DNA of 64,000 bases, taken from positions 8,855 to 72,854 of the IMG/VR virus record IMGVR_UViG_3300045131_002121. One strand, written 5' to 3'. Both the position numbers and the translations under genes were made by a program. Of this stretch, positions 7,778 through 39,127 are shown piece after piece. Positions within the stretch are counted from its first letter, which is position 1, and every line of letters starts with the position of its first letter. The stretch is from a virus. The notes beneath the pieces were generated by a model. The model was not told where the DNA came from. It saw only the letters and a program-made list of their open reading frames with translations, and ran no database searches.

Positions 7778-7778
7778 C

Positions 7779-10700
7779 ATGCCGATAGGCGGTGGAAACA
7801 TCATGTACCCCTCGGCAGCGTACGCACCAATTACGCTGTATTGGGATACCAATGGTACCAGCATCGGCGCCACAAACTCGACGACGGCCACGGGGACCTG
7901 GGGGACCAATAACTTTTGGAGCACGGATCCCGCAGGACTCGTGGCTACGAGGGCCTGGATACCCGGTGGTGACGCCGTGTTCTCCGCTGGTAGTAACGCC
8001 ACCGGGGTCTACACGGTGACAGTATCGGGTTTGCAGCCTGTAAGAAACATCACTGTTCGCAATGGCACGATTACGTTCACGACCGGCACACTACAAATCG
8101 CGCCGAGTGCTCAATGGTATAACGAGACATCAAATCTGGTTTCGGTTACCGCTGGGATCCGGTACACGAACACACTCACCCTGAAAAGTGGGGCATGGGT
8201 GATCACGAGTGCGGCGAGTGTGGGCACCGCAGGGGTTACCTTAGATGGCAATGGAGTCTGGGTACGGTCAGGTCACGCCAACTCTTTTGGAACAGGTATT
8301 CTAACTCTGAAGGACGGAAAATTGAGTTCCGACTCTGGTGCTGCCCGCGCCTTTACCAGTGGTCTCCTGATCTCGGCTTCTATCACTCTTGGAGATTTAA
8401 CTAACACCGGGGCACTCTCCTTTGGGTCCAGCCAATCCATCACGAATCCAGCGGTGATCACTGCCTTGAGCAATGTCACCTTTGGCACCAACATGACTTG
8501 GGATGGCAACGCCATCACTTTTAGAGGCCCCGGAGTAGTCACACAGACCTCGACTATCCCGGCGGCGTCGCATACAGGATCTATAACTATTGGCGATGGC
8601 ACCACTTTCTCCGGCAACAACGTCGGGGGAATCGTGTCGGTGGGCAGTCAGAATAATTTGGGAAGTGGTGAGGTCACCGTCAATTATGGGGGCAGTCTGC
8701 TCTTTAGTGGGCTCTTCACGCCAACGAACATTATCACGGTCAACGCCGGAGGCACGCTCAATGCACTCTCCAATGTTCATGGGGTTTACGGCAGCGCCCC
8801 TGGTACACTCATTGTGCGCAGCATGGCCACTCTGGCTGAGGTGTCCAACACGGAGTTCCGGGTCACGGGCAACACATTCCCCGCCGCTGGTGTCCTGATA
8901 GGGGCCAACAATGGTAACAGATTGTTTATCGGCGACCGTGATGGGAGCTACATAAATTCGCAACCCTATCCCATACTCACTGGTACGATGGTCTTCAATC
9001 AGGTCGGTCCTAATGCTGCTAATGGTTTCTTTTTTGGTCCACTCAACACCGGCACTGCTCCGACAATTGCGTTCAATAATTCGGTTCCTTTGGTGAGCGG
9101 CATCAATTTCAATGGCACCACTTTGGGTGGCGATCTCACCCTCGCCGGCAGTGGCAACACCGGTCTGACGGGCCTGGTGCCCACTGGTGCGGCGGGTGTG
9201 TTGGGGACAGTCAGTGGCAATCATGCGGTTACCGTGAACATGGCTCCAACTGGGGCGGTGTCGCTCACCGATCATGCCACGACCAAGTTGACCACGTTGA
9301 CCGTCAATTCAGGCACCGCCATCGTCAGTACCGATCTGGGTAGCAATACCGCACAACTCAATGGCGGCGGCATCCGCATGGGCACCGCCATCAGTTCGGC
9401 CATCAACGTCGGCGCCAATGGCGGCGTGCTCGAAACCGCTTCGGCCTTGAGTTACACCGGCAATCTGACGGCAACCGCAGGAGCATCCAACCTTGTCCTC
9501 CGCAGTGCAGGCGGCGCCCTGACGATTGCGACCGGCACGAATACCGGCCTTAACGCTGGGATCACCCTCGCCACCGCCGGAACGCCCAGGAGCGTTTATT
9601 TCAATGGGACGGCTACCCAACTCCCCAACGCCGCTTACAACATCACCATCCCCGCCGGTATCTCCTTCGGCGGCACGGCAGTCAATACCAGCGCCTACAC
9701 CAACAAGGGTCGCTTCGTCCTCCAAAGCGGTACAACCGACGCGGTCTATGACATCGACGCCCACGACACCTCGCCCAATCTGTCGGACACAGGTCTGGAC
9801 AAGGATGTCTGGATCGGTTTGTCAGGTACAGCCCTGGCCGCCAGCGGGTACACGCTTCGCACCACTGGGAGTTACCAGAACGATTACCGCGTCGTCCCCA
9901 TCGCTACCACCACCCAGAATAACACCGTTTTCACCGGCGCGGGTAAGAACCTGATCGTTTCCACAGGTGTCGTGCCCACCGACGTCAATTCCAGCGCCAC
10001 CGACGTCCTGGGCAGTGGCTTCGCGCTAACCATCACCGCCGCCCAGAACTACACCGGCTCGACCACTGTCCAGGGCACCGTCAAGAACGCCCTGATGGGC
10101 GGCGGGGTGAGTGGGCCGACACTGGGGATTGGGGCGCTCGGTGACTTGTCGGGTACGACCGGCATCACACTGGACAAGTCAGCTACGATGATCACCAGCG
10201 GCGGCCCGGCCAACTACGGCCGCATCACCGCCGCCAATGTGCCCATCACTGTCAAGGGCGGCGCGATGTTGACGGATGGTTCTCTCAACAACAACGAAAA
10301 CATCGGTGTAACCGATCGCATCGTCACATCTGCCGACCTGACCCTCGGCGGCGACACCGGCGGCGGCGCATTCCGCATGGCGTTCCCGGTATCGGGCATC
10401 CATGCCCAGACGCTCGACGCCCTTACCGTGAACGCTGGTTATAGCGCCATAACCAGCATCAACTCCGGCAGTACAGCGAACCTGACCTTCAGCGGCGGGG
10501 CCAAGGTGACCCGCAGTACCGGCGGCGTGCTTGCCATCGCGACCGTCACCAATTACAACATCGCCTTCACCGCCGCCCCCAATGCCACCGGCATGGTCTC
10601 CGGTGGCACGTACCCCATCCTTATCGGTGTGGTCAGAGGGCCGAGTGTGGGTGGTGGGATTCAACCGACCGAATGGGTGGCCGCAGGCGCAGGTGGTCTG

Positions 10701-13010
10701 GCCTCCACGACCTATGTCAACAACGACTATAGTTCGGCCAACAATAACGTAGATGCTACCGCCAGTGCCAATATCGCCGCAGGCAGCACGATTAACTCGT
10801 TGCGGTCCATTGCTACCGCCACGCTCACCCTCGCTGGCAATCTGACTATCAATTCTGGTGGTATCCTAATGGACCCCGGGGCCGGCAATAAAACGTACAG
10901 CATCACCGGCGGGACGCTTCGTTCCGGTGTTGATGAATTGATCATCTTCGGTAACTATGGGGCTGGAAATGCTCTGACCATCAGTTCTCAGATCACCGGT
11001 GCAAACCCGCAGAACATCACGTTGGCCGGCGACAATACTCGCACCACGGTCACCCTCTCCAACGCCAGCAACTCGGTTGGCAACATCTACATCTATGGCG
11101 GCACGTTGATTTCCAGCGTCGCCGGGGCACTTACTACCGGCAGTACCGACACGATCTATATGTTCGGCGGCTTTCTCAGTTTTCCCAACAGCACGACGCA
11201 GGACTACGCCGGCCGCAAACTCGTCGTCGGCCCAGCCGGCAGCACTTACATCGACGGGGGTACAGCAGCGGTGAGTTCGCTAGGCGGTGCGGTCACGCTC
11301 AACGGCAACCTGAACGTCACGGGTTTGGGCAACAAGACTCTCTCCGGCAACATTGGCACCGCACTCGGCATCGAGGGTGGTGGGCAGGGCACGATCACAG
11401 CCCAGACCAATGCCGGGCGACTCACCCTCAGCGGCAACAACCAATACTGGACCGGCGGCCTGAGGGTTGGCAACGGCATGCAGGTACGTCTGAATCACGC
11501 CAATGCCGCTGGCAGCGGTCCCCTCGTCAACCACGGGGCCATCGGCATCATCGAGTTCACCAGTAACTTCGGCACGAGTCTGGCCAACGATGTCATCGGC
11601 TCGGTTAGTACATCCGAGACCCTCATCAGTAACGCGAAGACCGACGCAGCGGTAACCCTGAGTGGTCGGATCTATTCCGTCGGCGGCCTGACCTTCCAGG
11701 GCTACGACAACGCAGGTGCCGTCAGCGAAACCGTCCTATCCGGCACCCTGTCCATCTCTGGCATCCCCGACATCTATTCTTACGGCGATACCTCCAACCT
11801 ACAGCGCTTCGTCAATGGCCAGGGCGGCATCAACTCAGGCATCACCAAGTACCAGACCACCACGGCGTTGACCTATGGCACCGCTGGTTTCCTGGCCTAT
11901 GCGGGTGGCACCACGACGGCGGTCGAAAACGGCGCCGAGGGCTATGTCCGGTTTAGTGGCGCCAACAGTTTCATCCCCGGTGCCGTCGGACCCGGATACC
12001 TCGCAGCCCTCCGCAAGGGGGGTGCCAGCGCTTTGAACTACGGCTACCTACTCACCGCAGGCAGCACCTACAGGCTTCCCCAAGGAAAATCCTTTGTCCT
12101 CGGCACCCTGGGCTCCGGCACCGCCCAGGTCGGCACCCTGGGCGCCACGGGTTCTGGAACCGCCAACCTGGATGGTGGCACCAAACATGAGGCCAGCACC
12201 GGCCAACTCCTCGCCGGTCTCTACGGCGGCGACATCAATATCCACGGCAACGCCAGCGGGGATACCGGGAGTCTCAAACTCCTGACCCGGGACGCCGACA
12301 CCACCCTGGTCCTGGGCAATACAAGCCAAGTCGTGTTCACCCCAACCTGGGGCGACAGCGGTGGCCAGTCCTGCATGACATTGATGCGCCACCGCAGTGG
12401 CAACACCACGCTGCGCAAAACTGGTCTGGGTACCCTGGTAGTCAAGAACACTGCCTATAACCAGGTCAGTGGAGTCGATGCCCGTGGTACCTTTACCTGG
12501 CAAGTCGATGCTGGAACCCTGCGGTATGATCAGGTTGATACCGGCACCGACGCCGATTATTTGGGTTTCAACGTCAATAGCACTGCAACCCTGGCTGGAT
12601 CGGGAACGATCAAGGCAAGTGTATCCGTGGTCTCCGGTACTCTCAACCCAGGCAGTGCGACGAGCCCAGCAGCGTTGACCATGAAGTCACTCACGCTGAA
12701 CGACTCCAGTGCGGTAGTCGCCCTTGATCTCGCCGGGGATACCGCGGGGACCCAGTATGACCAGCTCGTGATCCCAAGCGGAGGTGATGGTGTTTTCCTG
12801 AACAATGCCACGCTTGCCATTGTATTGAGCTATTCTCCTGCTGTAGGTAAAGTATTTACCATTATTGACAGGCAGTCCGCCGGGGCCGTCACCGGGGTGT
12901 TCAATGGGCTCGCCGAGGGTGCCACTGTTGCGAGCACGGGGATCACGCGTAATTTCACCATATCATACGTTGGCGGCGACGGGAATGATGTCACACTAAC
13001 CGCGCAATAA
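7779..13010 (+). CDS. Large beta-helix protein with autotransporter-associated (passenger) repeats; probable receptor-binding/adhesin fibre
   Basis: LYWDTNG...GTW...W N-terminus; NYTGSTTV, LTLSGNNQYWTGG and LRKTGLGTLVV repeats; C-terminal YDQL...FTII...FNGLAEGA...ISYVGGDGNDVTL; ATG at 7779 right after the upstream stop is preferred over 7719. Confidence 0.8.
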   Translation: MPIGGGNIMYPSAAYAPITLYWDTNGTSIGATNSTTATGTWGTNNFWSTDPAGLVATRAWIPGGDAVFSAGSNATGVYTVTVSGLQPVRNITVRNGTITFTTGTLQIAPSAQWYNETSNLVSVTAGIRYTNTLTLKSGAWVITSAASVGTAGVTLDGNGVWVRSGHANSFGTGILTLKDGKLSSDSGAARAFTSGLLISASITLGDLTNTGALSFGSSQSITNPAVITALSNVTFGTNMTWDGNAITFRGPGVVTQTSTIPAASHTGSITIGDGTTFSGNNVGGIVSVGSQNNLGSGEVTVNYGGSLLFSGLFTPTNIITVNAGGTLNALSNVHGVYGSAPGTLIVRSMATLAEVSNTEFRVTGNTFPAAGVLIGANNGNRLFIGDRDGSYINSQPYPILTGTMVFNQVGPNAANGFFFGPLNTGTAPTIAFNNSVPLVSGINFNGTTLGGDLTLAGSGNTGLTGLVPTGAAGVLGTVSGNHAVTVNMAPTGAVSLTDHATTKLTTLTVNSGTAIVSTDLGSNTAQLNGGGIRMGTAISSAINVGANGGVLETASALSYTGNLTATAGASNLVLRSAGGALTIATGTNTGLNAGITLATAGTPRSVYFNGTATQLPNAAYNITIPAGISFGGTAVNTSAYTNKGRFVLQSGTTDAVYDIDAHDTSPNLSDTGLDKDVWIGLSGTALAASGYTLRTTGSYQNDYRVVPIATTTQNNTVFTGAGKNLIVSTGVVPTDVNSSATDVLGSGFALTITAAQNYTGSTTVQGTVKNALMGGGVSGPTLGIGALGDLSGTTGITLDKSATMITSGGPANYGRITAANVPITVKGGAMLTDGSLNNNENIGVTDRIVTSADLTLGGDTGGGAFRMAFPVSGIHAQTLDALTVNAGYSAITSINSGSTANLTFSGGAKVTRSTGGVLAIATVTNYNIAFTAAPNATGMVSGGTYPILIGVVRGPSVGGGIQPTEWVAAGAGGLASTTYVNNDYSSANNNVDATASANIAAGSTINSLRSIATATLTLAGNLTINSGGILMDPGAGNKTYSITGGTLRSGVDELIIFGNYGAGNALTISSQITGANPQNITLAGDNTRTTVTLSNASNSVGNIYIYGGTLISSVAGALTTGSTDTIYMFGGFLSFPNSTTQDYAGRKLVVGPAGSTYIDGGTAAVSSLGGAVTLNGNLNVTGLGNKTLSGNIGTALGIEGGGQGTITAQTNAGRLTLSGNNQYWTGGLRVGNGMQVRLNHANAAGSGPLVNHGAIGIIEFTSNFGTSLANDVIGSVSTSETLISNAKTDAAVTLSGRIYSVGGLTFQGYDNAGAVSETVLSGTLSISGIPDIYSYGDTSNLQRFVNGQGGINSGITKYQTTTALTYGTAGFLAYAGGTTTAVENGAEGYVRFSGANSFIPGAVGPGYLAALRKGGASALNYGYLLTAGSTYRLPQGKSFVLGTLGSGTAQVGTLGATGSGTANLDGGTKHEASTGQLLAGLYGGDINIHGNASGDTGSLKLLTRDADTTLVLGNTSQVVFTPTWGDSGGQSCMTLMRHRSGNTTLRKTGLGTLVVKNTAYNQVSGVDARGTFTWQVDAGTLRYDQVDTGTDADYLGFNVNSTATLAGSGTIKASVSVVSGTLNPGSATSPAALTMKSLTLNDSSAVVALDLAGDTAGTQYDQLVIPSGGDGVFLNNATLAIVLSYSPAVGKVFTIIDRQSAGAVTGVFNGLAEGATVASTGITRNFTISYVGGDGNDVTLTAQ

Positions 13011-14191: not shown

Positions 14192-15013
14192 ATGCCTATT
14201 GTCGGTGATGCCAAGAAAGTTCGGAACTCCATGGAAGACACCTACGGCAGTAAGGAAAAGGCCGAACGCGTGTTTTATGCGACTGCGAATAAGCAGAAGC
14301 GTGACCACAAGAACTGGAAGAAGGAGGCCTGGGAGCTCGGCCTTGGAAAGGTGGCTGTGGAGATCCTCCGTGGAGGTGAAGGTGACGGGATCGCCGCTGA
14401 TCAACTCGATCCCCAGGCACTTGCCAAGGGAATGAAAGAAGAGGGGGAGCACACATCCAATCTGGCCCTGCGCAAAGAGATCGCCACTGATCACCTCGCC
14501 AAGGATCGCAAGTATTACGATAAGCTGGAAAAGATGGAGAAGAAGGCGGTTGCACCACCTCCATCGACTCAGCTTCCAGTGGCTAAGCTCCCAGGCCCAG
14601 GGACAGGTGCAACTAGGCCACCGATCCAGAACAGGCCGGTGACATCAACCACGCAGCTTCCCCAGCAACCCCCTGCGCAAAAAGGCGGCGGCCTCCAACT
14701 GATCCCTAATAATGGACCCTGTGATCAAGTTGTACCACCTCAGAATAGATCGAAGACTTTGAAGACTTCGGTGGCCGGTGGGGTCCCCGGGGGTAAGGCA
14801 AGTGTTACGAGCCCAATTGGAGCCCACGCGGCATCGACATCGATGACCACTCCGGTATCGCCTCAAATAGGCTCAGTGGCTCAGCCATTGAAGTCCCCGG
14901 CGAGTCCTGGGTTCTCAGATGACCTCAGTGCATCGCAACCCACCCAGGTGAAGACATCAGTTGAACTCCGCAGACTCGGCGCCTATGCGATCCGGTATCT
15001 CGGAGGCATCTGA
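14192..15013 (+). CDS. Multimodule protein with DUF5661-like domain and Pro-rich tail
   Basis: AGGAG RBS; LAKGMKEEGEHT...KEIATDHL......YYDKLEKME matches the DUF5661 pattern; modules are separated by KEA/KVA/KKA. Confidence 0.7.
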   Translation: MPIVGDAKKVRNSMEDTYGSKEKAERVFYATANKQKRDHKNWKKEAWELGLGKVAVEILRGGEGDGIAADQLDPQALAKGMKEEGEHTSNLALRKEIATDHLAKDRKYYDKLEKMEKKAVAPPPSTQLPVAKLPGPGTGATRPPIQNRPVTSTTQLPQQPPAQKGGGLQLIPNNGPCDQVVPPQNRSKTLKTSVAGGVPGGKASVTSPIGAHAASTSMTTPVSPQIGSVAQPLKSPASPGFSDDLSASQPTQVKTSVELRRLGAYAIRYLGGI

Positions 15014-17100
15014 TGCGTGCTGAGACCAAGATTCCATCTCCGGGTCGGGGTAGTGATCGCCCCGTGACCAATACACCCATGGCAACACCCACGGGTGGGA
15101 ATCCTGTCAAGGCAACCAATGCCCACATGGTCGAGGGCAAAACCTTTCTTGAACTGTTCAGTGGTGGCGACTGCAGGGGGACCTCAGAGGACCACGACCT
15201 CCCATCTCCTGCGGAGCGGGTGTGGACCAATGCGAAGAAGATGCTGCCGGCGAAACCCAAGGATGTCGAGCCCGATGCGGCGACCTGGGCGAAGCAGCGC
15301 AGGGATCACAGCTTCGCCAGGGGTCTTGGCAAGAAAGCCGCTGAGAACGAACCTACACCTGATAAGCACGAGGGCTCCCCATCACAACTCCTGCGCCCGA
15401 GATCCGAACTCATCGCCTTCGATAAGGATGGTGTCGTCGGCATCGACAAGGGTGACTACATCCTGTTCCCTGGTGGGGGCATCGATGACGGCGAACCCCC
15501 GTTACTCGCCGCGATTCGGGAAGCCATCGAGGAAGCCGATCTCAAGATCATTTCTCCGGAGACCCGTGAGATCGTAGAATCGATTTGGCCAAGTGGGGTC
15601 AACGACTTCTGGGATGACTCCGCATTCGATGGCGAACGCACCTATTTCTTCACTGGGGTCCACGAAGGCAAACTGGGGACCACGCACCCGGATCGGGAGG
15701 ATTTCGATGTGATCCCCTTTGCTACGCTGATCACCAGGCTAAAAGAACTCATTGCCAAGAACGACTGGGCCAAGAGGGCTAACGAGGTCCGCCTCGAACT
15801 CGTCGAGGCCGCCAGGGACATGGCGAAGAAGGATCCCGAGCTCAAGGGCAAGAAGTTGGCCAGTGTACCCCGCCAGCATCACGGCTGGGCGCTGTACCGT
15901 AACAGTCTTCGGCGCATCTATGCCCCCAAGGATCCCAAGGTCTTCGTGAAGGCGCTCCAGGACCTCGAGGCTGTCCATGGCCACTACTTCGATGAGGTCC
16001 GGAGATTCCCTGATGGCAGAGTCCTGGTTGTCCTCCGCAGCGGGGATGCCCCGACCAACGGGGACTTCACGATGGCCAAGCACACCAACACTATCGCCGA
16101 GAAGCATGCCGCGGAGATCTCGGGGTCCATGAGAACCCAGAAGTTCCAGGACAAGGTGCCCTCGGCGGCCCCAGGGCTCCTCGTCGACCTCGATGGTACC
16201 GTGGTCGCCGAATGGGATGACGACGCCGGCATCGAGGCCACCCAGAAGGTACAACCCGGGGTCAAAGAGCTCCTGCAGAAGTTTAAGGCTGCAGGGGTCC
16301 GCATCATCGGGGTCACCAATCGCAGTATCATGGGTACGAACACACTGCCCGATCTCCTCGACTTCAATGAGGAAACCCTTGAGCTCCTCCCTGAAATCGA
16401 CGACATCGTGTTCTGCACGGATTGCGAAGACGCGGGCAGGAAGCCATCCCCCTCGATGCTCGAATACGCCGAGGAAGCGTTTTCCCTGGATCCCGTGCTC
16501 TGCATGGTCGGTAACTCCCCTGATGACAAGGGTGCCGCGGAAGCCGCTGGGGTCACCTACTTCGATGGAGACGAGTTTTTCACAGGCGGGGTCGGAGATG
16601 ACGTACTGGCCACGCACACCGAGATGCCATTGAAGAAGCAGGCAGATGCTGCCGCGCTGCTTCCTAAAACTGAGTACGTCTATTTGGACCCCGAAGGTAA
16701 AGTATTGGTCCGACGTGACAGCAACCGTCGGTTTCATTTCCCCACCGAGGGTAAGGGGGCCCCTGCACCTTACTCGTCCAACGTCCGCGTTCTTCCCGAT
16801 GAGGGCGTCGCGGAGCCTGGGTACCACGGCTACGACTACGCCTTTCATCTCGGTGAAGGCGAGGCACCTGTGGATTTCCCCGGTGAGTGGATCCCCCATG
16901 ACCAGGTCCTCAAGCAGGTCTACGGGTCCATGGGCCTAGCCATCAATAAGCCATTCCGTAATCTTGATCGTGCCAGGGCACGGGTGATTCATCGCGCGAT
17001 TCGGAAGTCGAAGGCGGTGAAGCCGGAGACCCCGGAGATCCAGAACCCAGAAGAAGTCGCACAGGTTACACCGGTGCCCTCACAGGAGTCGCAGTCATGA
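15013..17100 (+). CDS. Multidomain protein: NUDIX hydrolase + pterin-carbinolamine-dehydratase-like domain + HAD phosphatase + degenerate NUDIX-like domain
   Basis: Nudix box GGGIDDGEPPLLAAIREAIEEAD (15472-15540); HAD motifs DLDGT, VTN, RKPSP and MVGNS.DD (class IIIA, GmhB/PNKP-like); the middle domain resembles the PCD/DCoH fold. Confidence 0.8.
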   Translation: MRAETKIPSPGRGSDRPVTNTPMATPTGGNPVKATNAHMVEGKTFLELFSGGDCRGTSEDHDLPSPAERVWTNAKKMLPAKPKDVEPDAATWAKQRRDHSFARGLGKKAAENEPTPDKHEGSPSQLLRPRSELIAFDKDGVVGIDKGDYILFPGGGIDDGEPPLLAAIREAIEEADLKIISPETREIVESIWPSGVNDFWDDSAFDGERTYFFTGVHEGKLGTTHPDREDFDVIPFATLITRLKELIAKNDWAKRANEVRLELVEAARDMAKKDPELKGKKLASVPRQHHGWALYRNSLRRIYAPKDPKVFVKALQDLEAVHGHYFDEVRRFPDGRVLVVLRSGDAPTNGDFTMAKHTNTIAEKHAAEISGSMRTQKFQDKVPSAAPGLLVDLDGTVVAEWDDDAGIEATQKVQPGVKELLQKFKAAGVRIIGVTNRSIMGTNTLPDLLDFNEETLELLPEIDDIVFCTDCEDAGRKPSPSMLEYAEEAFSLDPVLCMVGNSPDDKGAAEAAGVTYFDGDEFFTGGVGDDVLATHTEMPLKKQADAAALLPKTEYVYLDPEGKVLVRRDSNRRFHFPTEGKGAPAPYSSNVRVLPDEGVAEPGYHGYDYAFHLGEGEAPVDFPGEWIPHDQVLKQVYGSMGLAINKPFRNLDRARARVIHRAIRKSKAVKPETPEIQNPEEVAQVTPVPSQESQS

Positions 17101-18200
17101 GTCCATCTAAAATCATGCTTTTCTACCTGACTCGCAAAGTCGCGGCTTCCAGGATATTTAACCCCATAGTCATGGGGTCCACTATAGGTGTAGGGGCTGG
17201 GGTGGGTGCTCACGCCGCTGGTGAAAATTTACCTGCAGCGATTAGTGATGCGGTCACACTTGGTATGATTGGTGGTTCCGCATTCAGTAGAGGCACTAAA
17301 CGTAAGCTCTTTGGTGGAGACGCCGGGCAGGCCCGACGAGATCTCCAGGCAGGCAATCTTGCTAACTCCTCGGTCTGGAAACACAACCCGGTGACTGGAA
17401 AGCGCGAGTTCACCTTTTTCGATGATGAGCTAAACGCACAACGCTCCGTAGCACACGACTCACCGGGGGTGATCGATGTACTCAAGGATAAGTCTTCCGC
17501 GATCACCAACCGCGCGATTATGAGAGACCTCGTGGCCAATAAACTAGGTCTAACCGCACTTACCGCTGGTGCACGTGGTGCAGTCGAGCTGGCAGGCGTC
17601 ACTGGCGACATCAAGGCTGTCACTGGGGAGGCCAAGAATCAGCTCACTGGTGATAAAGGTTTGCTTGCAGACACCTCGGCCAAAGTCAGAAACGTGACTA
17701 ACCGCGCTGATAAAGCAGTTGGTAATCTTGAGAGAGGGGTTGATAGCGCTGTAAAGAATACTGAACAAGCTGGGAAGGACATAGTCTCGGTAACTGGTAA
17801 CGCTGCGGCGGCATCCAAGTCACTCCCCGACATACTGACGAACACCAACAAGGCGATTGATAATCTAGGTGCAGTAGGACCCGCAGCTGCTGCGCTGCCA
17901 ACAGCAATTGACTCCCTTGGGAAAAACGTCAATAAGGGGTTACAGTCGACCGCAGGTAGCATGGACTCCCTGGCCAAATCAACTGAGAGGGTAACTAACT
18001 TCTTAACAGATCCAAAGAATTATGCTATTGCTGGTGCCGGGATAGCCACCCTTGGGTTAGGGTATATCCTGTACAAGGCGTTGACAGATAAGGAAGACGA
18101 GGCTCCGACCCAAAAGGCCCCGCGTGCACCACGTAGCGCGGGTCCGCGTACCAAGTATGCCCCCGCAGATCACTCACACCCCGAATTTAAGCCGGCATGA
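17097..18200 (+). CDS. Membrane-anchored coiled-coil protein with KVA leader (367 aa)
   Basis: Gly-rich N-terminal hydrophobic segments, heptad-like middle, C-terminal TM AIAGAGIATLGLGYILYK followed by DKEDE. Confidence 0.65.
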   Translation: MSPSKIMLFYLTRKVAASRIFNPIVMGSTIGVGAGVGAHAAGENLPAAISDAVTLGMIGGSAFSRGTKRKLFGGDAGQARRDLQAGNLANSSVWKHNPVTGKREFTFFDDELNAQRSVAHDSPGVIDVLKDKSSAITNRAIMRDLVANKLGLTALTAGARGAVELAGVTGDIKAVTGEAKNQLTGDKGLLADTSAKVRNVTNRADKAVGNLERGVDSAVKNTEQAGKDIVSVTGNAAAASKSLPDILTNTNKAIDNLGAVGPAAAALPTAIDSLGKNVNKGLQSTAGSMDSLAKSTERVTNFLTDPKNYAIAGAGIATLGLGYILYKALTDKEDEAPTQKAPRAPRSAGPRTKYAPADHSHPEFKPA

Positions 18201-19060
18201 TGGCGTCTGGCATGTTCGGAGTCGTCGATGTCGTCGACGTCCACGGTGCCCGGCAGCTCCGAATCAATGGGCAGGTCCAGGGAGCCTCATTTCTGGAGCC
18301 CCCATCTGAACACGGGGGTCCCGGGGTTGTCTCGGCGTCCCCGTACACCGCGGGCTGGTTGGCCGCCGCGGTGATGAACCACAACGGCAGAGGCCTCATG
18401 GTGGGCTTGGGTAGTGGGGCCGGTGCCATCACGGTACTCGCCAACTTCCCTGGAGTCTGTCTCGATGTCGTCGAGATCGATCCCGTCGCGGTCCACATGT
18501 GCAAGCAAGGATTCCCGGAGGTCAACGCCGCCATTGAATCCGGCCGACTCCGTGTTTTCACCGCTGACGCCCTCGCCCTGATCCCACTCATCTCGAGGTG
18601 CCCCCGGGATAGGTACCACTACGATTTCATTCTTCACGACGCCTATGATGGCAAATCACTGATCACCGGGGATCAAGTCGACTTCTTCAAGTCCTGTGCA
18701 GCGGTTACTCCGAACATCTGGATCAACATCATTGGGCGCCCCAACATTGATCCCATGAAGACTTTGCTTCAGGATCTCGGCACCGCTGGGGTCGCCCCTC
18801 ACAGTCTCTTCTTCGCTGACCACACCTTGTTGCAGCCCTTTGATACCAACACTGCGGGGAACCACAACTGGATAGTCTCGACGCAGGAGACAAACCCAGA
18901 GCTCCTCGATTCATTTACCCCGCATGCCGACACCGAGGGGGAAACCCCGGCGGCGCAGCGGAATCTCCATGGGGTCCGTGTGCTCTGGGAACGTGTTTTA
19001 CAGACCGAGATCTCGGGTCCCGAGCTGGACGCCTATGTCGCAGGGCTTGACGCTCAGTGA
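18197..19060 (+). CDS. Spermidine-synthase-like class I SAM-dependent transferase
   Basis: LMVGLGSGAG, DVVEIDP, ADA and YDFILHDAYDG motifs. Confidence 0.8.
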   Translation: MMASGMFGVVDVVDVHGARQLRINGQVQGASFLEPPSEHGGPGVVSASPYTAGWLAAAVMNHNGRGLMVGLGSGAGAITVLANFPGVCLDVVEIDPVAVHMCKQGFPEVNAAIESGRLRVFTADALALIPLISRCPRDRYHYDFILHDAYDGKSLITGDQVDFFKSCAAVTPNIWINIIGRPNIDPMKTLLQDLGTAGVAPHSLFFADHTLLQPFDTNTAGNHNWIVSTQETNPELLDSFTPHADTEGETPAAQRNLHGVRVLWERVLQTEISGPELDAYVAGLDAQ

Positions 19061-20249: not shown

Positions 20250-23105
20250 ATGGCAAATCTCAATGTCAATGGTGGGGATCGCGGCCAAGCCGTTCGTCAG
20301 CTCCATGTCCCCTGGCTCGACTATGCCTCCACGGTGATGCCCACCAACCATGAGCTCATCATGTGGTGGGCCCAGTACCTCTGGCTCACCGATGGCAACT
20401 ATCGTTCTGCTTTTGGACGTGTGATCTCCCACTTCATCACCAATGTCCAGTTCCCAGCGCTCTCCGAGAACGAGGAGTCCGAGTTCAAGGATCTCTTCCA
20501 GAAGCATCTCAATTATCAGAGAGAACTCAAAGCCGCGGGATCCGATTTCCTGTGCTTCCACGGCGACACCAAGGCGGTTACCCGGAAAGGTGTCTTCAAG
20601 CTGCGTGACCTCGCTGGCCAGACCGTGGACGTCCTCTCCCAGGGCGGCGTGTACCGCAAGGCGCACTTCAAGTCCTTTGGTCGTCAGGAGCTTCTTGAGG
20701 TTACCTTCAGCGACGGCCGCACTGTCCTGGCAACCCCGGAGCACCAGTGGATCGTGGCGAAGTCGACCGGTGGAGCCGTCAAGGTTCCAACGACCAAGCT
20801 CCAGGGCCGTCGCATCGAGCGCACCGTGGCTACACGCCCCGCTCAGGGGGATGAGTACCGGGCCGGTGTCCGGCATGGCTTCGTGTTCGGGGATGGCTCC
20901 ACATACAACAAGCACCGCAAGACTCCCCAGGGCGTCGCCAACTTCTACGGCGCCAAAGACGCCGAGATGGTGCCGTTCTTCGAGGGTTTCGGTGGTGAAC
21001 CCCGTTCCTACACCACGGCGACCGGTGGGGATCTCATCAAGATCCACGGGCTCCCCGCGGAGTGGAAACAGCTCCCGGATCCCTGCGCCAGTGCGGAATA
21101 CTGGTACGGGTTCGTGTCCGGCTTCATGGCGGCCGATGGTTCAGTGGACACCTATGGCTGCTGCATCCTGACCCAGAAGTCCAGGGCCACCCTAGAAGCC
21201 ATCGCGCTGCAGCTCCCCCGCATCGGCATGGTAGCTGGCCCCATTCGGAGCCATGCGCGCGTCGCCGATCTCTCCGAAGTCAACGGGGACCCCGAGGGGA
21301 TCTATGAAGGCGAGATAAGTTACGTGACACTGCTAAAGCAGTTCATGCAGCCGCAGGACATCCTGCTGTCGAGTCACAAGGCCAAGTTCGATTCGAGCCC
21401 GTCGTCGGCGAGTTACGGTAAGTTCATCAGGGTGACCTCTGTCAAGCCGACTGGCATCTTCGATGAGGTCTTCTGCTGCGTTGAGCACGAGACCCACAGC
21501 TTTGTCCTGGAGAACGGCGTCCTGACAGGTAACTGTTACGGCAACGTATTCCTCTCGATCTACCTACCATTCAAACGGCATCTGTCCTGCCCGCATTGCT
21601 ACTTTGAACAGCCCATCAAGCATGTCGACTACACCATTGAGCTCACCGCACAGCGTGGAGTTCGCTGGCTCCGCAAGAAGCCGTGCCCCCAGTGTGGGAA
21701 CACCCAGGACTTCGTGCTCCGGGATCGCAAGGATCCCGATATCTCCCGGATCCGGGTTCTCCGCTACTCCCCCTTTGAGATCGAGCTCGCCCAGAACTTT
21801 TGGTCGCAACGCAAGAATGTGTGGTGGCGGATCCCCAATGACTTCCGCCAGGACATCCTGTCGAAGGCGCGCATCTTCGTTGACGACACCCCCATCGAGG
21901 TCCTCGAAGCCGTCGCCGTCAATGGGCGGCTCCTCTTCGACGAAGACATGATCTATCACGTCGATGAACCCGTGATCTCAGGGATGCGGACTCGTGGCTG
22001 GGGTGTCCCCGCCTCGATCTCCAACTTCCGGACATTCTGGTTACAGCAGATCCTGAACCGCGCCGACCAAGCCATTGCTTCCGATTACACCTTGGGTCTC
22101 CGTTTGATTTCGCCGGCAATGGCGAACCAGAACGATCCCATGATCCAGCATGGCATGGATAACTTTGTTGGCGGCATGAATCGCATCATCAATGCGCATC
22201 GCGCCGAACCCATGTCGTACCACACCGCCCCGTATCCCGTGAACTACCAGTTCCTGGGTGGTGAAGGCAAGGACCTCCTGCCCGCGGACAAGTTGAAGTT
22301 CCGTCAGCAGGAATCCCTGAACCAATGCAATGTTCCACTTGAGTACCACCAGATGACTCTGACTGCTCAGGCGGCTCCGATGGCCCTGCGGCTCTTTGAA
22401 TCGGCGTGGTCGGCGGTACCCTCGATGTACACCTCGATCCTGCAATGGATCGTTAAAGTTGCGGCTCGTAACTTTGGTCTCGAGGAAACCGATGTCCGCA
22501 TCCAACGCAGTACCATCGCGGATGACCAGGAACGCAAGAACATCCTCATGCAGCTCATGGCTGCGAATCAGATCAGTCCCCAGACTGCCCTGGAACCCCT
22601 TGGGGTCCTCGCCGGTGATGAAGCCCGAAAGGTCTTCAAGCACCAAGAGTTCATCCAGGAGCTCCAGAAGGAGCAGGACGACAAGGCACTCAAGGATCAG
22701 GAGATGGGTGCTGTCAGCGCCCTCGCCGGAGCCCAGAGCCCCTCGGCGATGCTGCAGCAGCAGCAACAGGCCGCCCAGCAGCAAGGCGGCGCTGGTGCCC
22801 CGCCTCCGGGGATGCCAATGGGTGGAGCCCCAATGGGAGGGCTTCCCGCTGGCGGCGGTGCCAATGCGGGTACCCTGAGTGGCATGGCTTCCCAGGCCGA
22901 GCAGATCGCTGGTCAACTCGCCGGGATGCCGGAATGGGATCGCAAGCAGCAGCTCAAGGCGCTCAGAGAAGGCAACAAAGATCTCCATGGCCTCGTCAAG
23001 GCCAAGCTGGATGAGATTCGCCAGCAGGCGTCCTCACAGGGCCAGCAGATGCTTCTCCAGGGTGGGCAGGGAGGTCAAGCCCCTGGTGGTGGAGCTCCCC
23101 AATGA
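20250..23105 (+). CDS. Probable portal protein containing an intein and a Zn-ribbon insertion
   Basis: After splicing it reads DFL/CYGNVFLSI (portal-like D...YGN.F); also RGWGVP..I..F, CPHC/CPQC, a Q/G-rich tail and a position at the start of the head module. Confidence 0.7.
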   Translation: MANLNVNGGDRGQAVRQLHVPWLDYASTVMPTNHELIMWWAQYLWLTDGNYRSAFGRVISHFITNVQFPALSENEESEFKDLFQKHLNYQRELKAAGSDFLCFHGDTKAVTRKGVFKLRDLAGQTVDVLSQGGVYRKAHFKSFGRQELLEVTFSDGRTVLATPEHQWIVAKSTGGAVKVPTTKLQGRRIERTVATRPAQGDEYRAGVRHGFVFGDGSTYNKHRKTPQGVANFYGAKDAEMVPFFEGFGGEPRSYTTATGGDLIKIHGLPAEWKQLPDPCASAEYWYGFVSGFMAADGSVDTYGCCILTQKSRATLEAIALQLPRIGMVAGPIRSHARVADLSEVNGDPEGIYEGEISYVTLLKQFMQPQDILLSSHKAKFDSSPSSASYGKFIRVTSVKPTGIFDEVFCCVEHETHSFVLENGVLTGNCYGNVFLSIYLPFKRHLSCPHCYFEQPIKHVDYTIELTAQRGVRWLRKKPCPQCGNTQDFVLRDRKDPDISRIRVLRYSPFEIELAQNFWSQRKNVWWRIPNDFRQDILSKARIFVDDTPIEVLEAVAVNGRLLFDEDMIYHVDEPVISGMRTRGWGVPASISNFRTFWLQQILNRADQAIASDYTLGLRLISPAMANQNDPMIQHGMDNFVGGMNRIINAHRAEPMSYHTAPYPVNYQFLGGEGKDLLPADKLKFRQQESLNQCNVPLEYHQMTLTAQAAPMALRLFESAWSAVPSMYTSILQWIVKVAARNFGLEETDVRIQRSTIADDQERKNILMQLMAANQISPQTALEPLGVLAGDEARKVFKHQEFIQELQKEQDDKALKDQEMGAVSALAGAQSPSAMLQQQQQAAQQQGGAGAPPPGMPMGGAPMGGLPAGGGANAGTLSGMASQAEQIAGQLAGMPEWDRKQQLKALREGNKDLHGLVKAKLDEIRQQASSQGQQMLLQGGQGGQAPGGGAPQ
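20553..21533 (+). mobile_element. Intein with LAGLIDADG homing endonuclease (327 aa) in the portal
   Basis: Starts CFHGDTKAVT; block B ATPEHQW; GFVFGDGS and GFMAADGS motifs; ends VEHETHSFVLENGVLTGN followed by +1 Cys. Confidence 0.93.
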
Positions 23106-37622: not shown

Positions 37623-37841
37623 ATGCGCGCCCGCATCCGCCTCTCCGATGGACGCCAGATCCACATCAGCGTTGCCGAGGTCATTGTTACAGATGACTTC
37701 GGGCAACCCCTGGCGTTGTCCTATGAGGAAAACGGATTGGTTGCACATACCGATGCCACGAAGTCAGATTTCTCATCCACAGTTCGTAAACTTGGTTTGA
37801 TCCCAACCCCTGTTGAGGTCATCCGCACCGGGGGTCGATAA
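37623..37841 (+). CDS. Small hypothetical beta-rich protein (72 aa)
   Basis: GAGGT RBS; coupled to the flanking genes. Confidence 0.65.
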   Translation: MRARIRLSDGRQIHISVAEVIVTDDFGQPLALSYEENGLVAHTDATKSDFSSTVRKLGLIPTPVEVIRTGGR

Positions 37842-39127
37842 TGTTGACTCCCGCTCAAGCCCTTCATTTCCTGTGCTCTAAAGTTGCAGCTGAGGTGGCC
37901 TACGACCCCCCTATGGGTGTAGATGGTATTAAGAAAAAATACCCAAAGCTGTTAAAGGATCCCATCCATCGCTGGCGAGCTCAGAATGGAATCGAGCTCG
38001 TGCATCAGGAGCCCTCTGACGCCGAGTTAAATCGGATCTGGGCGAATTGGCAGCGCATGTCGGCTGAGCAGAAGAAGATTAGCGATCAGAAGAGTCTTGA
38101 GCTGTTTGGTGTTAATAATGCGGACAACTATAAAAAATTGTTCTCCAAAGTTGCAGCGGACAGCGACAACAAGTCATACGCACCTCTTGCCAGTCGAGGC
38201 GAGCAGGCCGCGGAACCATCTAGTCGCGCCTACAAGGAGTTGATTTCTGGGCTGTACACGCAGGGTCGAGGTATAGGTGCAGGTGGAGATCCAATAAACC
38301 CATCTTTCCTTCGCAGTTTCTCCTGGCCAGATGCGAAACGGGCGCCAGTACCCCCCAAGTACAATGGGAACGCTGTTGTTGAGCGAGTCGATGGTAAACG
38401 GGAACAGGCGATTTCGCTGCGCCCAGCATTTGGGTTCCAGGGGCCCACACGGGTGGTTTTGACTTCGTCTCCGGATAGCCCAACGGACCAATCTGTACTC
38501 ACACATGAACTCGCCCACCTCTATGATCCCTGGATGGCGAAACCCAATCTGATCTTTCCTGGATCAACTGTACGTGGGGAAGCTGAGGTCCCAGCGATTG
38601 TCGCTGAAACCGCGTATGATCTCAATGCAGGAAACCAACCCCCACAGTGGGCACCTGGCGCCCCCTGGATATATGACGCGATCCGAAAACATGGACCTCA
38701 GGTGTCCCCTGGACAGACTGACCTAGAACGTGAAGACGCACTCCGGACCTGGATGAAGGCGTTACGTGATAAAAATAGCAACCTGGGCAGTAAGTATAAT
38801 GACTGGCTGAAGTCGGAGGCGGAGAGGGTGAAGCAGCAACAAGAGGGTACCTACGTGAAGCCAGAACACGGGGATATCCAGGAAGTTCTTAATAAGATGG
38901 ATAGGAATAATCCACGTGTTAAGGCTTTCTTGGATAAATTAAATCCAGAAAAGAAGAGTTTGTTATCCAAGATACCAACCCCATTACTATGGGGTGGCGC
39001 CATTGTGGGTGCCGGTGCCGCAGGGCTCCTAGCCTATTGGTTGTACAAAAAGTTCACAAAGGATGACAAGAAAGAAGACACGGATAAAAACGATATTCAA
39101 ATGCCGGAAGGCGTAGTAGCTGCATAA
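37841..39127 (+). CDS. Two-module protein with HExxH zincin-like motif and C-terminal membrane anchor (428 aa)
   Basis: SKVAA twice; LTHELAH (38504-38518) with a downstream Glu; TM LLWGGAIVGAGAAGLLAYWLYKK. Confidence 0.65.
   Translation: MLTPAQALHFLCSKVAAEVAYDPPMGVDGIKKKYPKLLKDPIHRWRAQNGIELVHQEPSDAELNRIWANWQRMSAEQKKISDQKSLELFGVNNADNYKKLFSKVAADSDNKSYAPLASRGEQAAEPSSRAYKELISGLYTQGRGIGAGGDPINPSFLRSFSWPDAKRAPVPPKYNGNAVVERVDGKREQAISLRPAFGFQGPTRVVLTSSPDSPTDQSVLTHELAHLYDPWMAKPNLIFPGSTVRGEAEVPAIVAETAYDLNAGNQPPQWAPGAPWIYDAIRKHGPQVSPGQTDLEREDALRTWMKALRDKNSNLGSKYNDWLKSEAERVKQQQEGTYVKPEHGDIQEVLNKMDRNNPRVKAFLDKLNPEKKSLLSKIPTPLLWGGAIVGAGAAGLLAYWLYKKFTKDDKKEDTDKNDIQMPEGVVAA

Follow-up and report, generated by a model that had tools for sequence, protein, structure and literature searches.

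A K-x-A triplet at the module borders of a putative head-loaded polyprotein from a large uncultured phage

Introduction

One gene in the window (the whole 64,000-nucleotide stretch of viral DNA analysed here) encodes several enzyme-like modules on a single chain, and the triplet K-x-A stands at each border between them. The locus raises the question of whether this triplet marks sites of processing, which enzyme would act there and where the products would go. An earlier note on this DNA had proposed that the protein is packaged and cut at K-x-A into separate enzymes delivered at infection. On the evidence presented below, the product is probably a precursor loaded into the phage head and cut after the alanine of K-x-A into its separate modules by the phage's own protease of the gp21 type. 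Coordinates of all features are compiled in Table 1.

Table 1. Features of the polyprotein locus and of the head genes of the window
Feature	Position	Strand	Description
Upstream coupled gene	14192-15013	+	DUF5661 module, Pfam match residues 67-118
Polyprotein ORF	15013-17100	+	695 aa, 76.5 kDa; four enzyme-like modules; large uncultured phage
N-terminal region	15013-15339	+	residues 1-109, 11.8 kDa, disordered; candidate propeptide or targeting region
Site 1, K107-K-A109	15331-15339	+	then A-E-N-E-P; flank logo K-x-A-[GAQ]-E-x-x-E-P
Module 1, NUDIX hydrolase	15340-15861	+	residues 110-283, 19.4 kDa; Pfam PF00293
Site 2, K281-L-A283	15853-15861	+	end of last NUDIX helix; linker 282-292 next
Module 2, PCD/DCoH-like	15862-16110	+	residues 284-366, 9.5 kDa; small alpha/beta; secondary-structure order
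Site 3, K364-H-A366	16102-16110	+	end of last module 2 helix; linker 366-371 next
Module 3, HAD phosphatase	16111-16644	+	residues 367-544, 19.1 kDa; cap-less HisB-N/GmhB/PNKP type
Site 4, K542-Q-A544	16636-16644	+	then invariant D545
Module 4 (CT)	16645-17097	+	residues 545-695, 16.8 kDa; probably NUDIX-derived; disordered tail 669-695
Head-maturation protease	48155-49573	+	candidate K-x-A cutter; start uncertain, homologues begin ~7 residues later
Protease K41-T-A43	48275-48283	+	
Protease K229-V-A231	48839-48847	+	
Protease K255-Y-A257	48917-48925	+	
Major capsid protein	52255-53193	+	K25-A-A27 at 52327-52335

The polyprotein gene and its setting

The ATG of the polyprotein gene is preceded at 6 nt by GGAGG (15002-15006). 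Both neighbours overlap the gene: the stop of the upstream DUF5661 gene shares TGATG with its start, and ORF 17097-18200 begins at its stop, in ATGA. The upstream gene carries the triplet as well, its DUF5661 module being bracketed by K53-V-A55 and K117-K-A119. In 9 of 10 related loci the portal gene is found 2-5 kb downstream of the polyprotein gene; the contigs are viral and measure 38-216 kb, seven falling within 149-216 kb. The family of the candidate protease was also found on contigs of 214,858, 176,822 and 180,134 bp, which are the same, to the base pair, as the lengths of three polyprotein loci.

Module identities

The chain had been read as NUDIX, PCD-like, HAD and degenerate NUDIX modules in succession, and these identities hold by Pfam, by Pterin_4a matches of homologues and by profile comparison with hhalign. 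They are preceded by a disordered region with a motif TGGNP..A.NA at residues 27-37 (15091-15123), in which N20, G28, G29, P31 and N36 are at least 90% conserved. Residues 1-109 hold no K-x-A ahead of K107, so that the first triplet of the chain is at residue 107, and the N-terminus lacks a short leader such as targets proteins to the T4 capsid.

Module 1 was matched by PF00293 above the cut-off (E 2.9e-8, residues 151-239). Its Nudix box (residues 155-177, 15475-15543) follows the consensus G-x5-E-x7-R-E-U-x-E-E-x-G-U as G155...E161...R169-E170-A-I-E173-E174-A-D176-L, with Asp in place of the final Gly; no variation was seen at R169, E170, E173 or E174 among 21 sequences. The model of residues 126-275 has the alpha/beta/alpha NUDIX fold (NudC Z 13.3, DDP1 13.2, RppH 12.9), and the top Foldseek match is RppH (E 2e-6), although fold matches do not tell the substrate.

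Module 2 is present only in the closer relatives (15 sequences hold it). In the window polyprotein it has no Pfam match at E <= 0.05; among 21 aligned homologues, eight gave a Pterin_4a (PF01329) match in the corresponding segment, with a best E of 8.3e-5, and homologue P0021 gave one with E 2.1e-5 and 25.0 bits, just short of the cut-off of 26.

Module 3 was matched by PF00702 (E 5.4e-10, residues 377-513) and possesses HAD motif I (D392-L-D394-G-T396, 16186-16200), motif II (T435) and motif III (K477). In the motif IV region, G500-N-S-P-D504-D505, Asn replaces the first Asp of GDxxxD, as it does in about half of the close homologues, and D505 is at least 90% conserved. PNK3P (PF08645) matched the window protein below the cut-off (E 1.4e-3, 18.8 bits versus 22) and 9 of 21 homologues with a best E of 9.1e-6. 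Structural matches were 2o2x (Z 16.3), GmhB 2gmw (16.1), mouse PNKP 3zvn (15.3) and T4 Pnkp 5uj0 (13.3), and the predicted structure fits GmhB as well as PNKP. Across both hydrolases the models match RppH-, NudC- and ADP-ribose-type NUDIX enzymes, and PNKP-, GmhB- and HisB-type HAD enzymes, about equally, favouring no single substrate.

Module 4, hereafter CT, ends the chain in 81 of 84 homologues. Its alignment was matched by hhalign to that of the NUDIX module with a probability of 87.8% (E 3.3e-6, 113 columns), while the controls, CT against the HAD and the module 2 alignments, remained below 1%. The profile alignment has a 20-column gap at the Nudix-box helix, i.e. the helix is deleted, and Pfam found no NUDIX match in residues 545-695. 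For these two reasons CT is judged from its sequence to be of NUDIX-derived fold and not a NUDIX-family enzyme, in other words a presumably catalytically dead paralogue.

Position of the K-x-A sites

The triplets that the earlier note had named (KKA, KLA, KHA and KQA) are all exactly in their places. Besides these four the polyprotein holds K-x-A at K108 (overlapping site 1), K254, K425, K506 and K581. The total of nine compares with 4.35 +/- 1.9 expected from 5000 residue shuffles, and since 2.2% of the shuffles reach nine, the count by itself is just mildly unusual.

Placement is far more selective. The AlphaFold2 model of the polyprotein (mean pLDDT 71) has pLDDT below 50 at residues 1-88, 90-112, 282-292, 366-371, 537-548, 601-604 and 669-695, and domain limits were mapped on it, as the earlier note had suggested. 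None of the four sites is buried in a folded domain: all lie in or against the predicted linkers between modules, namely 90-112, 282-292, 366-371 and 537-548. When nine sites were placed at random 200,000 times, 0.04% of the trials had every one of the four linkers touched; for 50,000 residue shuffles the figure was 0.006%. The linkers are somewhat K- and A-rich. The copies at 254, 425 and 506 are within predicted helices, and that at 581 adjoins a strand. Beyond K..A, the four border sites have in common just that a small or acidic residue comes next; the remaining flanks differ. The linker following site 3 is predicted to be merely ~6 residues long.

Conservation among homologues

K-x-A within 3 residues of sites 1-4 was found in 37/48, 40/40, 15/19 and 82/86 homologues, respectively, and within 3 residues of the in-domain copies 254, 425, 506 and 581 in 4/80, 9/72, 14/72 and 30/85, with a background of 6.6% for a 9-residue window; the homologues are related to one another, and the counts are thus of non-independent events. 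In the exact column the triplet occurs in 25/48, 31/40, 4/19 and 81/86 for the border sites and in 2/80, 7/72, 8/72 and 1/85 for the in-domain copies. K281 and A283 of site 2 are invariant, as are K542, A544 and D545 of site 4 in the alignment. Sites 1 and 3 are less constant than the others, site 3 being mostly K-T-A-G in homologues.

At site 4 two of the four misses among 86 homologues read K-x-G, and the residue following the triplet is D in 81 of 81 distinct contexts. The triplet belongs here to a longer invariant stretch, K-x-A-D-[AV]-[AV], which extends into the first CT strand, and it could therefore be a part of the CT domain. Furthermore, the 30/85 occurrence is around the invariant A585 inside CT, so the conservation of the motif is not confined to linkers.

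Exchange of modules at K-x-A

Comparison of homologues, also suggested by the earlier note, revealed that K-x-A is precisely where modules are added, dropped or separated. In 62 homologues possessing both NUDIX and CT the gap between the two ranges from 11 to 595 residues, with K-x-A after the NUDIX module in all 62 (within 25 aa) and before CT in 60. The inserted cassettes comprise a second NUDIX, a C39 peptidase (P0043 and P0063), DUF5661, and a LigD 3'-phosphoesterase with DNA ligase. The DUF5661 module, encoded by a separate upstream gene in the window, is internal in 13 polyprotein homologues, where K-x-A lies within 12 residues of it upstream in 10 and downstream in 11. The methyltransferase-like gene that neighbours the polyprotein in the window is fused to the NUDIX module in P0073. 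The NUDIX and C-terminal modules are a fixed bracket across the family, with K-x-A-bounded cassettes between or ahead of them.

The same modules also occur alone. The stand-alone versions (P0075, P0080, P0085, P0083, P0078, P0109, P0098 and P0057) begin with a leader of 3-18 residues that ends in K-x-A, followed by the same post-site residues.

Head protease, capsid protein and phage Arash

PHROG and Pfam recognise almost no head genes of the window. The protease ORF is an exception, being matched by phrog_18299 (PHROG head maturation protease, E 8.5e-8). In a search of 48,161 PDB representative chains the best structural match of its model was T4 gp21 (5jbl_A, Z 9.6, rmsd 3.1 A over 139/165 residues), followed by the proteases of VZV (1vzv, Z 6.9) and HCMV (8j3s, Z 5.2), with the next, unrelated chain at 4.7; Foldseek paired it with gp21 at a probability of 0.97 but with a weak E of 0.2. 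The predicted structure is that of the T4 gp21/herpesvirus assemblin fold. Of the candidate catalytic residues, S160 (in V-S-M-G) and H109 never vary among 40 sequences, while the conservation of H68 is at least 90%. C170, C173 and C184, also invariant, form part of a Cys-rich insertion, and the C-terminal ~240 residues are helical.

The protease itself carries ten K-x-A against 3.4 expected. K41, K229-V-A231 and K255 flank its catalytic domain, and K41, K229, A231 and K255 are invariant in the 40 sequences. The triplet is likewise in 2-3-fold excess in the ORFs beginning at 42213, 45638, 48155 and 49576. Short leaders, with the Lys of K-x-A at residue 10-20, were counted in 8 of 36 window ORFs versus 2.2 expected (P ~0.001).

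Among cultured phages, Salmonella phage Arash (OQ632216.1) comes nearest to the head module, with the same gene order: an RNA polymerase beta'-type gene, a helicase, structural genes, protease gp222 and capsid gp226. The window capsid protein matches gp226, annotated as major capsid protein (blastp E 3e-24, 26% over 304 aa), with its K-A-A aligned to K-E-A; this K-x-A at 25-27 is kept in Arash and in Vibrio phage D181. Gp222 shares 31% identity with the window protease and keeps K-V-A after the catalytic domain, and K-x-A is 2-4-fold over-represented in gp218, gp220, gp222, gp223 and gp225. In contrast to the window, no relative of the polyprotein was found in Arash, whose two NUDIX genes are elsewhere, the gp138c protein being without K-x-A. 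Arash virions contain RNA polymerase subunits and several hydrolases (PMC10585845). The words protease and cleav occur nowhere in that study, which gives no support for cutting and reports full sequence coverage for the K-x-A-rich head proteins Gp221, Gp223 and Gp224; such proteins are thus not simply cleared from the Arash capsid.

Altogether, every available test favours the reading that K-x-A signals processing where modules meet. The claim that the triplet marks cleavage sites is thus supported in part, by linker placement, selective conservation, module exchange and the motif on protease, capsid and many short leaders; the cutting itself would belong to the model below.

Proposed mechanism and known systems

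We infer the following course of events. The precursor would be loaded into the procapsid, where the protease of the putative gp21/assemblin type would cut after the alanine of K-x-A, with Lys at P3 and Ala at P1. Five products would result: the disordered 109-residue piece, the active NUDIX (110-283), the PCD/DCoH-like module (284-366), the HAD (367-544) and the dead NUDIX (545-695). Carried in the head, these would reach the host together with the DNA, and the two hydrolases may then act on nucleotide-type substrates, such as RNA 5' caps or triphosphates, ADP-ribose-type molecules, 3'-phosphate ends or sugar phosphates. Packaging and delivery at infection are suggested by the position of the gene near the portal and by analogy with T4 and phiKZ/SPN3US. 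No described precedent for Lys at P3 was found in the literature.

In T4, the head cargo proteins IPI-III and Alt are processed by the prohead protease gp21 at L/I-x-E. The window is similar in having a predicted gp21-fold protease in the head module, a three-residue signal read as P3-x-P1 and short N-terminal leaders ending in the signal, which the window's small head proteins and the stand-alone modules both carry. It differs in the signal itself (Lys-x-Ala instead of Leu/Ile-x-Glu), in its location (between several folded enzymes on one chain in the window, and not just behind a leader of ~10 residues) and in having a disordered N-terminal region of 109 residues in place of a short capsid-targeting sequence. 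The motif of herpesvirus assemblin is V/L/I-x-Ala, then Ser. Both would share a cut behind alanine, a small residue coming next, and herpesvirus proteases rank second and third among the structural matches; yet P3 is hydrophobic in assemblin and Lys in the window, whose protease has in addition the Cys-rich insertion and the helical C-terminal part.

Phages phiKZ and SPN3US (proteases gp175 and gp245; A/S/G-X-E) share with the phage of the window large size and a virion-type multisubunit RNA polymerase among the head genes. SPN3US gp245, a relative that cuts after P3-x-P1, does so at A-X-E; many head or ejection proteins have the protease motif, the protease cuts itself, and N-terminal propeptides are long, of 111-254 residues (PMC10052503). 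The motif ends in Glu there and in Ala in the window, and the excerpted text on SPN3US does not describe a chain from which multiple enzymes are cut apart (PMC10052503).

The polyvalent proteins (Iyer et al. 2017, PMC5512222) combine unrelated effector enzyme domains on one chain, are encoded among virion genes and are shuffled fast. The window polyprotein resembles them, with at least two unrelated effector-type domains (four modules) and a gene among virion or late genes (portal nearby). For polyvalent proteins either self-processing by a built-in zincin-like peptidase or persistence as a whole chain was proposed (PMC5512222), whereas Pfam found no peptidase family in the window polyprotein, and every module is bounded by a three-residue signal common to capsid, scaffold-like and protease proteins. 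Packaging had been predicted before for Nudix domains that are encoded among head genes or fused with them (PMC9503650); a NUDIX...dead-NUDIX bracket is not described in the excerpted texts of PMC5512222 and PMC9503650.

A broader reading is tentative: K-x-A may be the address-and-cut code of an almost unstudied large-phage lineage (Arash; perhaps phage G and cluster C mycobacteriophages), with the NUDIX...dead-NUDIX bracket as cargo carrier. Any cassette placed between two K-x-A would enter the capsid in a constant quantity, to be released by the head protease and then injected. If true, this would be a natural plug-in delivery of counter-defence enzymes that edit RNA and DNA ends, the cargo including a 5' pyrophosphohydrolase, a 3' phosphatase and LigD phosphoesterase and ligase.

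Alternative explanations

The precursor cut by the head protease has as its foremost, although unlikely, competitor a tag reading: K-x-A could be a docking or capsid-targeting tag recognised by scaffold, shell or protease, with the chain left uncut, or deprived only of its N-terminal piece, as one-chain polyvalent cargo. Any short linear motif that needs exposure is expected to show the same conservation and linker placement. Polyvalent proteins of the N4 virion RNA polymerase type are packaged unprocessed (PMC5512222), and 13 of 14 mapped cuts in SPN3US take off N-terminal propeptides and do not separate enzymes (PMC10052503). A tag, however, has no need to stand at every module border or to close the leaders of stand-alone modules. 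Motifs flanking the catalytic domain are the classical self-processing pattern of gp21-type enzymes, and K-x-A on both sides of the protease's own catalytic domain would be unexpected of a tag.

Cutting by another enzyme, a host protease or other phage peptidase, before packaging or after injection, appears improbable. Candidates can be named, i.e. the zincin-like ORF 37841-39127 and the C39 modules of P0043 and P0063, and built-in peptidases have been proposed for polyvalent proteins (PMC5512222). Nevertheless, the window polyprotein has no peptidase module by Pfam, and K-x-A is also on the gp21-like protease and capsid and accompanies the protease into cultured phages that have no polyprotein.

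We give just as little credence to an ordinary cytoplasmic multidomain enzyme of nucleotide metabolism, expressed late and unpackaged, in which K-x-A would be a linker habit of the lineage. Multidomain NUDIX and HAD fusions are indeed common, but a habit of this kind would not hold K and A invariant while other linker residues vary, it leaves the K-x-A leaders of stand-alone modules unexplained, and the gene stays in a translationally coupled block beside the portal across relatives. Finally, a chance or compositional origin of the four motifs in Lys- and Ala-rich linkers, for which the total of nine against 4.35 (2.2% of shuffles) and the linker composition could be adduced, is extremely improbable, being contradicted by placement (P <=0.0004), by conservation of 77-100% versus the 6.6% background and by independent recurrence of K-x-A at non-homologous junctions.

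K-x-A sites at the module borders of the polyprotein

The earlier note had described the polyprotein as a chain of four modules (NUDIX, PCD/DCoH-like, HAD phosphatase and degenerate NUDIX), with K-x-A at every domain border as a proposed cleavage site and with the enzymes packaged and delivered at infection. The four tripeptides were found as claimed (see table); the K-x-A observation is thus confirmed, and the interpretation is partly supported. Altogether, the polyprotein carries nine K-x-A against 4.35 expected, and since 2.2% of shuffles also gave at least nine, the number taken by itself is weak evidence. In the AlphaFold2 model, computed with a 21-sequence input, four folded modules have stretches of pLDDT below 50 between them (residues 90-112, 282-292, 366-371 and 537-548), and K107, K281, K364 and K542 are found within or right next to precisely these four stretches. 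Nine randomly placed sites reached all four stretches in 0.04% of trials. The five further K-x-A start at K108 (overlapping K107), at K254, K425 and K506 (all in helices) and at K581 (next to a strand). The only features common to the four border sites are the Lys and Ala themselves and a small or acidic following residue.

Features of the window and of the polyprotein discussed in the text
Feature	Position	Strand	Remarks
Fibre-like genes and RNA-polymerase-like ORFs			within the late-gene block
Repeat protein gene	7719-13010	+	1763 residues
Upstream gene of the polyprotein	14192-15013	+	DUF5661 module
Polyprotein gene	15013-17100	+	695 residues; GGAGG 6 nt ahead of ATG
Site 1	15331-15339	+	K107-K-A109
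Site 2	15853-15861	+	K281-L-A283
Site 3	16102-16110	+	K364-H-A366
Site 4	16636-16644	+	K542-Q-A544
G-K-x-A-P-Y in module 4	16753-16767	+	residues 581-585
Variable gene with K-V-A leader	17097-18200	+
Portal-like ORF	20250-23105	+	insertion at residues 104-428
Second variable gene	23102-28846	+
Head protease	48155-49573	+	PHROG of head maturation proteases
Major capsid protein	52255-53193	+	26% identity, E 3e-24 to annotated capsid protein gp226 of Salmonella phage Arash

All four proposed domain identities hold, two of them weakly. The NUDIX module was matched by Pfam at residues 151-239 (E 2.9e-8), its Nudix box is intact with R169, E170, E173 and E174 invariant, and its structural matches to NudC, DDP1, ADP-ribose pyrophosphatases and RppH are nearly equal (Z 12.9-13.3). 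The third module was assigned to the HAD hydrolases at residues 377-513 (Pfam, E 5.4e-10); HAD motifs I-III are present and motif IV starts with Asn, not Asp, and the structural matches were a rhizobial HAD phosphatase, GmhB, mammalian PNKP, HisB-N and T4 Pnkp (Z 13.3-16.3). For module 2, a unit of small size and alpha/beta type, the PCD/DCoH-like assignment is backed by weak Pterin_4a matches in counterparts from 8 of 21 relatives. The C-terminal module 4 (CT, residues 545-695) aligned to the profile of the NUDIX module (probability 87.8%, E 3.3e-6; controls below 1%), with the catalytic helix missing. When the NUDIX module (110-283) and CT (545-672) were modelled together as a complex, the score was 0.00 in two runs without controls, from which no verdict is drawn.

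Conservation of the sites and exchange of modules

The sites were mapped by local alignment onto 163 relatives, and conservation was counted over homologues whose alignment covered the site, with K-x-A accepted up to three residues from the mapped position. K-x-A was kept at site 1 in 37 of 48, at site 2 in 40 of 40, at site 3 in 15 of 19 and at site 4 in 82 of 86 homologues; the corresponding figures for the four in-domain copies were 4/80, 9/72, 14/72 and 30/85, and a random nine-residue window in the relatives has K-x-A 6.6% of the time. Counts at the exact alignment column agreed with these values. In the 21-sequence alignment K281, A283, K542, A544 and D545 do not vary, and the linker residues around them do. 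The motif is not strictly limited to linkers, since 30 of 85 relatives have a K-x-A within CT, on the invariant A585; this copy may be a fifth site or simply belong to the CT fold.

Gain and loss of modules at K-x-A junctions, which the earlier note had suggested as a check, was borne out by the homologues, whose local matches begin and end at the sites. Among the 62 proteins with both NUDIX and CT, the distance between the two modules ranges from 11 to 595 residues, with K-x-A after NUDIX in all 62 and before CT in 60, and the shortest forms have one site only between them. Among the cassettes inserted are a second NUDIX, C39 peptidases, DUF5661 and a LigD 3'-phosphoesterase combined with a DNA ligase domain; many other inserted stretches match no family. 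In the upstream gene product, K53-V-A55 and K117-K-A119 enclose the DUF5661 module; 13 polyprotein relatives have this module inside the chain, and K-x-A lies close to its upstream border in 10 of them and to its downstream border in 11. A methyltransferase-like gene located two genes downstream of the polyprotein is joined to the NUDIX module in one homologue (P0073). Stand-alone NUDIX, HAD and CT modules carry a leader of 3-18 residues with terminal K-x-A, and the residues after it are those found after the internal sites. CT is the final module in 81 of 84 relatives. Recombination at a DNA motif was rejected as the source of the module borders, nine bases being too few and the second codon varying freely.

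It should be added that in two distant homologues (P0099 and P0102) SNF2-type helicases are the fusion partners of the HAD module, an arrangement unlike the NUDIX bracket, and that one of the two homologues has an intein.

Head protease of the window

The model of the head protease (pLDDT 80.7) had T4 gp21 as its best structural match among 48,161 PDB representatives (Z 9.6, rmsd 3.1 Å over 139 residues), followed by two herpesvirus proteases (Z 6.9 and 5.2) and by unrelated folds at 4.7. Foldseek also placed gp21 first, with a weak E-value. Used as single query against viral contigs, the protease matched nothing beyond two near-identical relatives; homologues were drawn from the protein database. 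In 40 of these, K41, K229-V-A231 and K255, located on either side of the catalytic domain, are invariant, and the model is disordered at about residues 221-249. K-x-A flanking the catalytic domain, together with a disordered stretch, is the arrangement of a head protease that processes itself.

Residues 168-186 of the protease form a Cys-rich insertion after V-S-M-G, in which, across 40 sequences, C170, C173 and C184 never vary and conservation of H183 and H186 is at least 90%. The insertion looks like a small zinc-binding loop; a loop of this type is not known from T4 gp21.

K-x-A in other head genes and in cultured phages

The K-x-A signal may be far wider than the polyprotein family. Three neighbours of the protease (ORFs 42213, 45638 and 49576) have it 2- to 3-fold above expectation; their comparison with PDB sequences for capsid or scaffold identity gave nothing meaningful (best E 0.83). 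Short leaders with terminal K-x-A were found in 8 of 36 ORFs of the window against 2.2 expected, and small genes in related loci likewise have short leaders ending in K-x-A. These leaders were not attributed to signal peptidase: they are 10-18 residues long with Lys at -3, a position at which signal peptidase I favours small residues. The capsid protein, which had no match to PHROG or Pfam profiles, has K25-A-A27 aligned to a K-E-A in the Arash protein and likewise in that of Vibrio phage D181.

Distant relatives of the protease occur in Salmonella phage Arash, Vibrio phage D181, Bacillus phage G and cluster C mycobacteriophages. Arash resembles the window in gene order, in K-V-A after the protease catalytic domain and in K-x-A near the capsid N-terminus, and five of its head-module proteins have K-x-A in 2-4-fold excess (gp220, 10 vs 3.0 expected). 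The protease and head genes next to it show a 2-4-fold excess in the other cultured phages of this protease clade too, examples being a 269-aa ORF of D181 (10 vs 2.9), gp19 of phage G (8 vs 2.5) and gp90 of mycobacteriophage Alice (19 vs 8.8); gp21 of phage G also has an excess. The phage G paper names gp19 a head maturation protease and gives no motif. The Arash virion study (PMC10585845), which used mass spectrometry, reports RNA polymerase subunits and several hydrolases in virions and mentions neither protease nor cleavage.

Among 50,697 GenBank phage records no full-length relative of the polyprotein was found, the search returning two weak HAD-only matches in uncultured megaphages. Two NUDIX genes of Arash, gp160c (NMNAT/ADP-ribose pyrophosphatase) and gp138c, were rejected as counterparts: neither is located in the head module, and the product of gp138c has no K-x-A.

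Proposed processing and its significance

Head proteases of tailed phages trim propeptides. Enzymes of the gp21 type cut after a P3-x-P1 signal, as given for A-X-E of phage SPN3US in PMC10052503, and K-x-A is therefore read as Lys P3 and Ala P1, with the cut after Ala. By analogy, we infer cleavage of the polyprotein, its side, the enzyme responsible, and packaging and ejection; that the head protease cuts the polyprotein we consider fairly probable. With a single chain, every module would enter the procapsid in the same copy number, and cutting would then release pieces of 9.5-19.4 kDa. Candidates for procapsid targeting would be CT, which is present throughout, and a conserved TGGNP motif within the first 109 residues, a disordered region.

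The proposal overlaps in concept with the protease-processed head cargo of T4 and phiKZ/SPN3US, with polyvalent proteins as outlined in PMC5512222 and with the earlier prediction of head-packaged Nudix proteins in PMC9503650. It is set apart from these by the Lys-x-Ala signal placed between several enzymes of one chain, and by the bracketing of cassettes with a live and a dead NUDIX. No description of the Lys-x-Ala signal was found in the main texts of the openly accessible articles searched.

If true, the proposal would add to double-stranded DNA phages a genuine polyprotein strategy, with enzymes strung together and freed by the head protease, and Lys-x-Ala in a linker would be a simple rule predicting head cargo and the starts of mature products. 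Lys P3/Ala P1 would likewise be a new specificity for the gp21/assemblin protease fold, standing between Glu-specific phage enzymes and Ala-specific herpesvirus enzymes. The cassettes (NUDIX, PNKP-like phosphatase, LigD phosphoesterase and ligase, C39 peptidase) are candidate injected enzymes and may counter host defences within minutes of the start of infection. The suggestion that the enzymes heal nucleic acid ends gains some colour from the PNKP-like phosphatase and from the phosphoesterase/ligase cassettes of homologue P0028. Motif and protease are both shared with Arash, and since mass spectrometry of its virions exists already, the cutting rule is testable now.

Gene neighbourhood and probable inteins

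The window is made up of a phage late-gene block, all on one strand. Start and stop of the polyprotein ORF both overlap adjacent genes, which therefore makes it a member of a translationally coupled four-gene run from 14192 to 19060. The upstream gene encodes a small modular protein too, in which a conserved head of 45 residues is followed by K-V-A, the DUF5661 module, K-K-A and finally a long Pro/Ser/Thr/Gln-rich tail; the first 45 residues are kept in five related loci (L005-L009).

The genes at 17097 and 23102 share 26-34% and 31% identity with their counterparts in related loci L001/L002, where surrounding genes share 82-97%, and are hypervariable genes beside conserved head genes; the former codes for a K-V-A leader and for hydrophobic stretches rich in Gly. 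The repeat protein has 44% identity to its L001 counterpart, with adjoining genes much closer, is missing from L002 at the corresponding place, and looks like the product of a fast-changing fibre or adhesin gene.

The insertion in the portal-like ORF, of about 325 residues, is present in loci L006 and L007 and missing from L001-L005, L008 and L009, in which the two halves join directly; the insertion probably represents an intein and has a weak Pfam match to Intein_splicing (E 6.8e-4). Four protease homologues of 634-822 residues (P0181, P0201, P0204 and P0205) also contain intein/LAGLIDADG families (PF14528, PF14890, PF13403), and several head genes in this phage lineage seem to be targeted by inteins.
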